A DNA stretch of 62,399 nt, counting the filler, from Hausera hauseri (Eukaryota): NCBI GenBank assembly GCA_046269625.1. It is 13 parts of 13 records of this genome, joined end to end, with 100 filler letters (N's around TTAATTAATTAA, not from the genome) between each part and the next. Parts side by side here need not be neighbours in the genome. Positions count along the whole stretch, not along the records: positions 42,532 to 47,012 come from JBJURY010559784.1; 12 more parts are not named here. One strand, 5' to 3'. The notes under the pieces were generated by a model that worked only from the letters and a program-made list of their open reading frames with translations, had not been told where the DNA came from and did no database searches. A program made the position numbers and the translations under genes. Each line of letters begins with the position of its first letter. Position 1 is the stretch's first letter. Positions 42,532 through 47,012 of the stretch are shown in pieces.

Positions 42532-44637
42532 AATTGCAAAACCAGTAATTGCAAATCAATTGTCGGAATGGTCCGAGTTAGTAAACCGACGAAGCAAATC
42601 AGTAGAAGACCAAAAAAAGAATTTCCGCAAAGCGAACCTACGGTAAAGAAGAAGGTAGAAGAAAGTGCACATGATCTAGGCACAATGCGAATAGAAATAA
42701 ATATCCGCACCCAATAAGAAACGTTAAGACGGCTAAAATTTATGAAAAGAGAACATGTAAACTTAAAGTTGAAGGTTGCTCGACTAGAAGGAATCCAATA
42801 CTTAACGGAAAAACTAATCGATAAGATCTCTGCCAAAGACATTGAAATCTTAGACATCTGTCCTGGACATCGAAATACGTTAACAGACACAATAAAATTT
42901 TTGCATAAGCCACAAGAATGTATGACCGGATCAAATCAGAATTTTTATACCAAGTTGACAAAAATAAGAAACGACTTACATTTTAGCTTTCAGGAACACA
43001 AGTTCGTAAAGAAATTGCTGAATACAATGGACCCCGACTCGATAATTATAAATGAGATGTATGGGCTAGCCTATCTACTGGTAGAAATGGCGGAGATTAA
43101 TGATGAAAGAATGAGGCAATTAACGCCAAAACTACAACAAGTTAAAGAAACATGTATTAAAACAAAACAAAGAGCAACGAGGCTAGATGAACTAGTAAAA
43201 GAATTCAAAAGCTACAGGAACAAATACGCTTTTACGGAATCATAAATTAAAAATAAGCGAGAATTTGTGCATAGATGGCAAAGAGATGTAATTATTGAAC
43301 TAACCGTTTATCACCAAAAGGGATTTATCAATGCTAACGAGTTAGGCGAATTACTGAAAGGGATTCAATATGCTTGCGAAAATGGAATAGGTTTCCAGAC
43401 CACGCAGATAAAAGAAATACAACCAAAATTAAGAAAAATTCGAGAAAATGTGCAAAGGACAAATACAGTTTTGGTAGGCTATGGACTTCCAGATATTGCG
43501 AATTAACCAGAATGGAATGCTTATTTAGAAGAAATAACGGCCGAAAATCCGATAACTCCAGAACACCTAGAAGAAATAGAAAGGTATCCGCATAATAGAA
43601 AATTCAATGTAGAGATGATCCTAAACTCAGCATTAACCGAGAAGAACTTGATGGAATCAATTAACGTGAATATGACTGAAAATAAGCTCAGACAGCTTAT
43701 TCCGACCTTGACTATACTATCTAGATAGAATACAATTTACAGCACTGTGTCGAAATTTCTGATAAAAAATTATGCAAACATCTTGAGGGTTAAACCCGAA
43801 GCAATAATGAAAATAATGATATCATCCGAGTGGATGGGAGAAAAAGAATGTGAGTTAACTACTCATTCCTACGTAAAGGACGTAAGAGAATGGTTACTAA
43901 ACAATGGCGGAACAAATGAACTAAATTACAGATTTTACTTTAGAAGAAGAATACTCGACGATTTAGAACAACTAATAGACGTCGGAATCATACCGGACGA
44001 AATAAATCGGATACTAGTAATAATAGCCAATGAACAAACAAAGGAAGAAGCCACGCGTAATGCTAAAACGGACAAATGTGCAAGACAAATCACGGGAGTA
44101 CGAGATGCAGCGATGGACTTCGAATATATACAGACGGATGAAGACAAGGAACAATACGACAAGAATCTAGTATCGCTCAGTGGAATGCCAGCCAATGCTC
44201 CGAGACCAAAACGCCCAGTCGGCAGACCTAGGAAGCCCCGAGAAAAAATGGACTATAATGGAGAACTGATTAGAGAATTAAGACCAATGTCGATTCCTAC
44301 TCTCAGTACAGATAATGAAGAATTAAGCGAGTTAATTAAAAATGTAATACGTATCATAAATTATTCGAGTCTCCGCGGAGATACATTAGACGGGAAAGAA
44401 AAAGCAATATTTAACACAGGTAAAACAATGAGAAGTTCGCGTTTCAAACTGTCAAAAGGTAACCTAACTGACGACGCAATAGTCGAGAAAATCATAGTGG
44501 AGAATACGATAGAAGAGCTGAGAAAAGTATTATTGTACTTGGCAATAAAGACAAATCCTAATCGAGAAAATGAACTAAATAGAGCGACGAGTTTGGCTCG
44601 AAAAGCATCTAGGAAACTTCCATGCGAAGTAAATTGA
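42532..44637 (+). pseudogene. Retroelement polyprotein insert: coiled coil, ubiquitin-like domain, AT-hook
   Basis: Homology to 22518-23570; MKIMISSEW..SYVKDVREWL..YRFYFRRRILDDLEQLIDVGI..ILVII (43807-44025); KRPVGRPRK near 44210. Confidence 0.65.
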
Positions 44638-44739
44638 CCAAAATTGTTTGATAAGAAAGAAGACAAAAGGAACATCAATAATGGACTCGGAGATATCATA
44701 CGCAACTTGACGACAACGGATAACAACAAACGGACGAAC

Positions 44740-47012
44740 GAATCTAATTGGTTGATCAGTTTGCTCACCATAATTGTGTTATTAAAACAAATGGGTGCTG
44801 TTACTGTTTACGATTGTGATAAATTCAAACATAGACAAAAATATTCGTTAATGGACTTAGAAGCATGTGAAGATGCCAGACCACATAAACTGGAAACAAA
44901 AGAAAAGAGCTATTTTCTATATCAACAACAAGAGTTGATATCTTTGAATGGCATGGAATGTATGCTGAGACGATCTTGTAGTATTTTTCACTGTGGGTTA
45001 ATGCACGGACACTACTCAATAATTAAACCAACAACTCCTCCGATTCCCATGAATTTGGAAAGGCAACATTGTAAAGAAGCCCGAGAAACTAAAAAACTAA
45101 AATGGGATAGCATGGAATTGGAAATGCAGCCCGGAAAAATAATCAGAGCGTATAAGATAGTAGGCGGAAGACTGGATATGCATAACATGCACTGTAGTAG
45201 AACGGAATACGATACCGGAAAAGGACTGGAAGCAAACGTAGTGGTAGTAGACTTTTACGAATCGAAAATGCCAGTTCAAAAAGTAATGTTCCATAGCGTC
45301 ACTAAGTTATATACTGAGGATCAAAAATGTCACATGCAAGACGGAACTTGTGCCTTCAGAAGTTCTGTCGTCATATGGGAACCGCCCACCGGAAAAGCCT
45401 GTACTTTTATTAAGATTAAGGAATTGAAGTTTAATGAAACTACCGGAAAACGATAAGTAGACAAATCCGACATCAGTTCAAGAGCACGGGAAGACGTATC
45501 AGAGCATCATACACCTACGATATTAATCGCTGATCAACATGGATTGAAATTCATAAAAAAGAACTGATTTCAAGATGTGAAATAGTAATGTTCACCACTA
45601 ATTACGAAGCGTTCTTCGTCGTAGAAACGGAGATAAACGCAAAAACGTACAATCTGGAAACACAAAACATTCGAATTGAAGATTATCTGAAAAATAGAAA
45701 CGATTATTTTTATTATAAAGGACAAGTCGGAATAGCTGAACCATACCATAAAATGATAACTAATGACTGCAAATTAGATACAGAAATTATGAGGACAAAA
45801 TTATGAGGCTAAACTCACCAATTATTCCCATGAGAGAAGGAATTTTTGGTCGAGTTACTGGCCAAGTTTTACTGACATATGAAAGCGAGAAAAGAGATGT
45901 ACCAATTAACGTTGAAGAAAAACGATGCATACAGGAGCTTCCTGTGATATACCAGAACACTCCACGTCTAGCCATGCCTCTCACTAGAGTATTGCTTGAT
46001 AATGCGACACAACCAACCATTCTAAAAGATTGTAAGGCAAGTTTAAGTGAACCAGTGTTTAGGCGTAGCGAAACGAATTGGTTTAGCTTACCCAATGGAG
46101 GTGTCACTATTATTCATAAAAAACTAACTGGAATTAATTTATCAAAAGGAATTACCGACGAAAAATTCCAGGATACATCTCAAAAAGGCATTTACAGACC
46201 AAAAGAGATCGAGGCGATACCCGGTACCAGGCTAAAAGGGAATCCTTGCTTGGCGCGAACCATTACCAGCGAGTAACCACAGAAATACTCTACAAAATAT
46301 GGGGAAGATTTTTAATTTTTGGACAAGCCGCATCTGAATTCTTAGCAATTTATTTCATGGTATAACTGGTAAAGGCGGTAATTCAAGCGGTTATAAATGG
46401 GTACAAAATATTCACGCTAACAGGATTTTACTGTAAAATTTTAACTGCAATTATTAAACCGTTTGGCAAAATGCTTAAAGCATACGAAGAAAACCGATGG
46501 AACAATGACGTTTAACGCCATGTCGGCTACTAGAATTACAAACGTCGAGCAAGACCCATTTTTCGACTGAAACGCAAGGTTAAGAAACCAATGATGCGAA
46601 GAAATAATTCAGATGATGACGAGCCTAAGAGAGGAGAAGCAATCCTCGGACAAAATAGACATAAAATGTATTCAGTGATTAGAGCACCCTTACCTATCAT
46701 GCCGCCAACGGCTCCAATATATGAAGATTGTGAAAAAACATCTATGGTATCATATAGATCGGCATTCTGTCAGAAAACCTTCAGCTATGAAGATCCTTAT
46801 GAAGGAACAAAACAATATGGAGTATTAAAGAAAATGCAGATCACTAATCAACGACGAGCAAAGGACGACCACGGGATATTGTACTCACCGAGGATAGCTC
46901 GCAATATAAAAACAAGATCGACAGTTTGGGGGAAACAAGGAGTGAAGTCGTTCCAAAATCCAATAGTACAAGAACCATTAATTAGAAACAATACGAATAA
47001 CATGGCAGTTAA
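44740..47012 (+). pseudogene. env: Envelope glycoprotein, chuvirus-like, second subfamily
   Basis: LISLLTIIVLLKQMGA then VTVYDC..YSLMDLEAC; CMLRRSCSIFHCG; CHMQDGTC..W; GRVTGQVLL..CIQELPV..PLTR; TM GQAASEFLAIYF; tail with PTAP. Confidence 0.8.

Follow-up and report, generated by a model that had tools for sequence, protein, structure and literature searches.

A decayed, probably Burro-like polyprotein fragment with a predicted ubiquitin-like domain before a viral-type envelope in the genome of Hausera hauseri

The locus analyzed here raises the question of what lies between gag and env in a retroelement of Hausera hauseri (GenBank assembly GCA_046269625.1), and whether this interval represents a slot in which related families carry different cargo. 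The window, i.e., the whole stretch of 62,399 nucleotides that was analyzed, embeds 13 contigs of 4-6 kb linked by N44-TTAATTAATTAA-N44 spacers; because of this construction, adjoining pieces are not necessarily neighbors in the genome. The contigs referred to by number are contig 1 (1-3989), contig 5 (19493-23591), contig 10 (42532-47012), and contig 13 (57503-62399), and their features are collected in Table 1. Contig 10, a dead fragment, probably derives from an abundant Ty3/gypsy element of the GAG-ENV-POL (Burro-like) type. The host group is likely the flatworms, as judged from sequence similarity only, and the ancestral pre-env block of the element was likely common to the family carrying Bcl-2.

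Table 1. Features of contig 10 and of its relatives in the window (positions along the whole stretch).
Feature	Contig	Position	Strand	Basis or remark
Single decayed polyprotein frame (helical/coiled-coil region, Ubl, AT-hook, helical domain, N-terminal half of env)	10	42532..45564	+	Six in-frame stops
Helical, partly coiled-coil region	10	42613..43497	+	Alignment with homologue in contig 5 (22572 to about 23550); heptad signal 43078-43224
Pre-Ubl helical segment, weakly similar to counterpart in contigs 1 and 13	10	43681..43806	+	24 and 82 of 2000 shuffles
Predicted ubiquitin-like domain (Ubl), without C-terminal di-glycine	10	43807..44031	+	Atlas, joint profile, Pfam
AT-hook-like motif, basic residues around GRP	10	44209..44235	+	Six-frame regex
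Helical domain at the place of the Bcl-2-like domain of contigs 1 and 13	10	44242..44700	+	Cut by TGA 44635-44637
Predicted hydrophobic, signal-peptide-like segment before mature env	10	44740..44799	+	
Env, mononegavirus/HSV-gB-type fusion glycoprotein	10	44800..46512	+	Stops and frameshifts; TM-like 46327-46371
Post-env spacer ORF	10	46534..47010	+	No protease motif up to contig end
Decayed gag with a single CCHC knuckle (~20910-20960) and a long helical region, from a related family	5	19900..23567	+	
Frameshifted Ubl-like stretch; AT-hook (58982), Bcl-2-like domain, and env (58330) follow downstream	13	59105..59329	-	
Bcl-2-like domain	13	58463..58819	-	PF00452 E 1.1e-4 (short of the curated cut-off); BOK E 0.0074 with contig 1
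Ubl-like stretch, followed by Bcl-2-like domain, env, and protease	1	3313..3537	-	

The reading frame of contig 10 and its gag-side relative

The long frame of contig 10 is interrupted by stops at 42715, 43243, 43504, 43726, 44635, and 45454 and is otherwise unbroken; therefore, the two ORFs that an earlier note on this DNA had placed at 43747-44637 and 44644-45456 do share one frame, with refined limits of 43729-44634 and 44638-45453 and a single TGA between them. Neither pol nor an LTR was seen on contig 10, and this copy is dead and non-functional.

The homology that had been proposed between 42742-43506 and 22518-23570 was borne out, since 42613-43356 and 22572-23393 (contig 5) share 51% of their amino acids over 248 codons; a further alignment of the two contigs, in another frame, falls near the end of contig 5. 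The nucleotide identity of the same region is 62%, with 67, 76, and 42% at the three codon positions, so that the two contigs appear to have diverged as coding sequences under constraint. Probing contig 5 with contig 10 by blastn did not retrieve any match, and the two are, on sequence comparison, different families. The coiled-coil signal in contig 10 is patchy.

A gag with a zinc knuckle had also been attributed to the contig spanning 19493-23591, and Pfam confirmed one such knuckle (PF00098, E 6.7e-5); the contig also has a gag-like stretch resembling that of contig 13 (z 9.6). Projected onto contig 10, contig 5 stops about 300 nt before the Ubl, and for this reason the order gag-CCHC-coil-Ubl is drawn across two families; gag and knuckle sit on the contig 5 family and are linked to contig 10 by the homologous overlap only. 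Of the previously tiled order gag-CCHC-coil-Ubl-AT-hook-env, the portion from coil to env, with a predicted Ubl and an AT-hook-like motif, lies in one stop-broken frame on contig 10, whereas the gag join bridges two families at 62% nucleotide identity.

The env of contig 10 matches PF24664 (Monjiviricetes_fusion) in four pieces and, apart from one stop, is in frame with the Ubl ORF, in agreement with its earlier placement after the Ubl slot. A hydrophobic segment (44740-44787) lies ahead of this env, which shares 29-30% identity with the env of contigs 1 and 13; a retroviral-type protease follows env on contig 1 only (RVP, E 0.001, 433-666). In two public runs, 14,213 and 1,073 contigs fell on the contig 10 family, covering 30 of 30 bins and mostly below 95% identity, which fits an abundant, old, dispersed repeat. 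Homologues of the Ubl ORF (among longer proteins), of env (likewise longer), and of the contig 1 Bcl-2 plus env (near its length) were not found; HMMER against 1.84 billion representatives gave only one match, an unrelated-looking repeat protein (E 1.7e-4), and none of 15 pattern matches in viral contigs was confirmed.

The block between the helical region and env

The stretch 43807-44031 is likely a ubiquitin-like domain, as predicted from three lines of evidence. In the Atlas language-model feature search with 43801-44034 (recognition 3142, scores 0.91-0.94), 23 of the 30 matches fall on clusters without a name, and the four sets that do have one all belong to ubiquitin/Rad60-SLD, including PF11976. 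Pfam reports UBX (E 0.065). A joint profile of contigs 10, 1, and 13 retrieved ubiquitin or RAD23 UBL in 28 of 34 PDB matches, with E 0.009 for the best single domain; its two poly-ubiquitin rows at E 0.002 are sums of four weak repeats. Contig 10 alone had a single PDB match, which was not ubiquitin, and a control profile made of contig 10 and three unrelated segments of the window retrieved no ubiquitin among 20 matches. The AlphaFold single-sequence model, of low confidence (pLDDT 53), consists of strand-strand-helix and then helices, with no beta-grasp, and a VIA search with it reached at best Z 5.3, on helical bundles. The Ubl suggested earlier for the region before env is thus supported by Atlas, the joint profile, and Pfam, the AlphaFold model being the exception. 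No di-glycine follows the last predicted strand in the translations of contigs 10 and 1.

Upstream of their Bcl-2-like domain, contigs 1 and 13 harbor a broken stretch of 75 residues that aligns nearly gap-free with the contig 10 Ubl; their own profile, without contig 10, retrieved RAD23 UBL weakly, in 3 of 10 matches (E 0.55-0.71). Local pairwise comparison of contig 10 with contigs 1 and 13 yields no significant alignment, neither in the Ubl nor at the Bcl-2 position, and hhalign gave a probability of 0.1.

Moreover, a block of about 350 aa, which begins with the pre-Ubl helix and stops short of the env signal, is globally colinear between contigs 10 and 13: its score was reached by 3 of 2000 shuffles, by 5 of 2000 with block shuffling, and by 21 of 2000 after masking of the hooks, against 994 and 471 of 2000 for two control regions in the same global test, all p-values for the block being optimistic because its boundaries were picked after the resemblance had been noticed. 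The local alignment with the hooks masked is at chance (783 of 2000). The spacing is comparable, the distance from Ubl to hook being 414 nt in contig 10 vs. 347 nt in contig 13, and that from hook to mature env 579 vs. 652 nt. A six-sequence alignment of the whole pre-env block was misaligned and was dropped. From these comparisons, it looks as if the lineages share one pre-env block rather than swapping cargo.

The AT-hook core is classically R-G-R-P in a basic context. Contig 13 carries the full core, and contig 10 the GRP without the first Arg, with no AT-hook call in Pfam scans of contig 10; two of the four matches of the six-frame regex in the 62 kb fall at the equivalent place in these two contigs. 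Contig 1 lacks this segment, being about 225 nt shorter between the end of the Ubl and the Bcl-2 core, which looks like an internal deletion. An AT-hook had been claimed for both families; since the segment is missing from contig 1, the claim holds, among the Bcl-2 contigs, for contig 13 but not for contig 1.

In contigs 1 and 13, the Bcl-2 signal is weak but consistent, the Pfam and BOK matches being accompanied by BAX rows. For the domain following the hook in contig 10, our preferred reading is a much diverged Bcl-2 homologue, which we rank above replacement by another protein. The segment aligns globally and colinearly with its counterpart (p about 0.015-0.02; unrelated windows reach z 3.3), and a three-sequence AlphaFold model has seven helices in a Bcl-2-like order (pLDDT 41). 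Foldseek with this model, which was built with Bcl-2-like rows, retrieved the Bcl-2 family in 7 of the 43 matches listed (E 3-4); with VIA-align, the best match (Z 7.5) covers a three-helix piece and none of 50 rows is Bcl-2. Atlas did not report Bcl-2 for this domain (best score 0.82).

Likeness to Burro and to flatworm errantiviruses

Burro, or GYPSM1, comprises giant gypsy-like LTR retrotransposons of planarians, with an ORF of 4,873-5,140 aa, an element length of more than 30 kb, and long LTRs (PMC6431247). According to that review, ORF1 embeds gag, CCHC, Smc, MATH, a Ubi2/SUMO-like domain (PF11976), BCL2, an in-frame mononegavirus-like env, and PR; as both are placed in ORF1, Ubl and Bcl-2 co-occur in Burro, for which copies degraded by stops and frameshifts have likewise been reported. 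A search of the literature returned no paper combining retrotransposon, ubiquitin-like domain, Bcl-2, gag, and planarian, and PMC6431247 gives the layout in other words. According to this source, the single-ORF Gag-Ubl-BCL2-env-pol layout is already published for Burro; PMC8532177 treats the expression of Burro.

Coiled coil, predicted Ubl, and mononegavirus-type env are common to Burro and contig 10; a gag with CCHC would be shared as well if contig 5, which is of a different family, represents the gag side of such an element, the full order being pieced together across families. The Ubl lies upstream of the Bcl-2 position and of env, as in Burro, and env is likewise in frame with the gag-side domains upstream of it; the protease after env is here confined to contig 1. 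The BCL2 located between Ubl and env in Burro is weak in contigs 1 and 13 and has only a positional homologue in contig 10. One knuckle was seen here, compared to two or three in Burro. The MATH, BIR, ankyrin, and midasin-like domains of Burro were not seen in contigs 5 and 10; Pfam scans of the pieces of these contigs, which represent an incomplete element, contained no MATH/TRAF, BIR, ankyrin, or dUTPase. A BIR is present on the unrelated contig 2. The likeness to Burro drawn in the earlier note is supported for a single-ORF Ty3/gypsy layout with gag (tiled from contig 5), coil, Ubl, AT-hook-like motif, and env.

Adding the ~2.7 kb of contig 5 from gag to the overlap to the ~4.4 kb remaining on contig 10 gives ~2,350 codons without pol. 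Given that a usual pol has 1,100-1,200 aa, we infer a full polyprotein of ~3,500 aa or somewhat more, as estimated across two families. This is below the 4,873-5,140 aa of Burro, and the description of the element as very large was overstated.

Elements of the GAG-ENV-POL type are also published for flatworms (PMC13524379): Smed_errantivirus_1-6 of S. mediterranea are HSV/gB-type errantiviruses of Platyhelminthes, with env class Platyhelminthes_C1a. This env precedes pol and, by eye only, its motif pattern in the supplement resembles that of the contig 10 env; the identity among the Smed_errantivirus env (27-64%) is comparable to the values found between contig 10 and contigs 1 and 13, and their loci of 14.5-18 kb are compatible with a compact element here. 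Those elements are intact, whereas contig 10 is dead. The words "ubiquitin", "Bcl", and "Burro" do not occur in the main text of PMC13524379, so that, as far as this text is concerned, the pre-env block is undescribed there. The contig 10 element is a further member of a described kind, the overall layout of which is published.

Alternative scenarios, proposed organization, and meaning

In principle, the difference between the lineages might be explained by an exchange of modules, complete or partial. A complete exchange, in which one family has the Ubl and the other has Bcl-2, was the cargo slot envisaged by the earlier note; it agrees with the Pfam calls, which place Bcl-2 exclusively on contigs 1 and 13 and a member of the Ubl clan exclusively on contig 10, and with the lack of pairwise local similarity between the two Ubl stretches. 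Against it stand the Ubl-like stretch of contigs 1 and 13, which is in register and has its own RAD23 UBL matches, the ubiquitin matches that the joint profile gains and that neither profile has alone, the colinearity of the block, and the presence of both domains in Burro (PMC6431247); the modular slot is accordingly not supported, and we consider it very improbable. Partial exchange would leave Ubl and AT-hook common to all and restrict modularity to the Bcl-2 position, where, in the contig 10 lineage, an unrelated helical protein would have taken over the stretch from hook to env signal. This scenario is unlikely, yet it accounts for several data: 44242-44700 has no direct Bcl-2 match in Pfam, PDB sequences, Atlas, or VIA-align, the addition of contig 10 dilutes the BOK profile match from E 0.0074 to 0.11, and its central helix is less hydrophobic than the strongly hydrophobic one of contig 13. 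The global alignment, colinear, of near-equal length, and anchored at both ends, and the seven predicted helices with their Foldseek matches speak against such a replacement.

A different origin altogether, in which env and cargo derive from a non-retroviral endogenous viral element or from a BEL/Pao element rather than from a gypsy polyprotein, would fit a contig devoid of pol, the assignment of PF24664 to a mononegavirus family, and the occurrence of this glycoprotein type in mosquito BEL/pao elements (PMC13524379). The protease downstream of the related env on contig 1, the gag-like and CCHC sequence upstream of the homologous region, and the very many dispersed copies leave this origin with almost no credence.

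In the preferred reading, i.e., a shared ancestral block, a helix, the predicted Ubl, an AT-hook-like motif, a helical domain at the Bcl-2 position, and a signal peptide would have followed one another in an ancestor translated as one polyprotein. Env would be directed into the ER by the internal signal (44740-44799), which host signal peptidase would cut; the Gag-coil-Ubl-hook-helical part would stay cytosolic, anchored by the signal segment, and pol, after the env TM, would be cytosolic as well. Bcl-2 proteins are tail-anchored, and the signal segment may double as tail anchor for the domain at the Bcl-2 position. The Ubl, because it has no terminal di-glycine, may be read as a built-in interaction domain rather than a conjugated tag, and the AT-hook might bind AT-rich DNA or RNA as a nucleic-acid tether. 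The lineages would then differ through divergence (about 30% env identity) and deletions, and not through an exchange of Ubl and Bcl-2. A more tentative extension, which we regard as rather doubtful, is that of an old conserved Ubl/AT-hook/Bcl-2 cassette in which the env signal peptide also serves to anchor the tail of Bcl-2; the Bcl-2 of the contig 5/10 lineage would have diverged beyond recognition or been replaced, with control of apoptosis lost or rewired and the AT-hook kept as a chromatin tether.

Two small additions were not found in PMC6431247 or PMC13524379, namely the AT-hook and a Bcl-2 anchor that the env signal may provide as its second role; the review of Burro does not contain the term AT-hook, and the primary paper (Grohme et al. 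2018) may list one. Overall, a Burro-type layout, with host-like ubiquitin and Bcl-2 domains before a captured viral envelope, is extended to further families, which are highly divergent and probably of a more compact build. The data suggest that the pre-env block is conserved rather than swapped, and this, in turn, would imply a constrained function, for example in the survival of infected or transposing stem cells.

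Polymerase-bearing and mosaic-like contigs

The coordinates of the features are collected in the following table. The gypsy polymerase of contig 3 is present as RT, RNase H and integrase pieces and is followed by an additional ORF with a signal-like segment. The DNA polymerase B fragment of contig 9 (protein-primed type; PF03175, E 5e-8) is Polinton- or virus-like. The open frame of contig 8 harbors a kinase match (E 1e-13), a coiled coil, weak PH/SET matches, a stretch resembling dihydroorotase (judged by eye) and element-like sequence at its end; it looks like a mosaic of pieces from host genes.

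Features of the individual contigs
Contig	Positions	Strand	Feature
1	~3194-3318	-	Ubl to Bcl-2 core
1	3666-3971		Acidic stretch
2	4091-9977	+	BIR and gag-like region
3	10797-14026	-	Gypsy pol and additional ORF
4	15095-19392		Low-complexity sequence
8	33503-37573	+	Frame without stops, 1,357 aa
9	38941-39777	+	DNA polymerase B fragment
12	53951-54469	+	Cluster of unannotated ORFs
13	59330-60067	-	Gag/pre-Ubl helix junction

BIR domain, low complexity and a third GRP motif

The BIR domain of contig 2 (PF00653, E 1.5e-8) is followed by a coiled-coil, gag-like and RD-rich region; this contig possibly represents another Burro-like family, with BIR preceding gag. Contig 4 is extremely T/C-rich with several gaps, and its long ORFs are composition artefacts. 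The contig 12 cluster embeds a third GRP-containing basic motif at ~54086, with a TM-like segment upstream.

Variation around the predicted ubiquitin-like domain

In contig 1, the distance from the predicted ubiquitin-like domain (Ubl) to the Bcl-2 core is ~225 nt shorter than in contig 13, without the AT-hook and the first helix. In contig 13, the capsid-like gag region directly joins the helix preceding Ubl, both the zinc knuckle and the long coiled coil being absent between them; the explanation is either an internal deletion in this copy or a family of very compact build. At the corresponding point, contig 1 harbors an unrelated acidic stretch. Genuine variation appears to be located upstream of Ubl.
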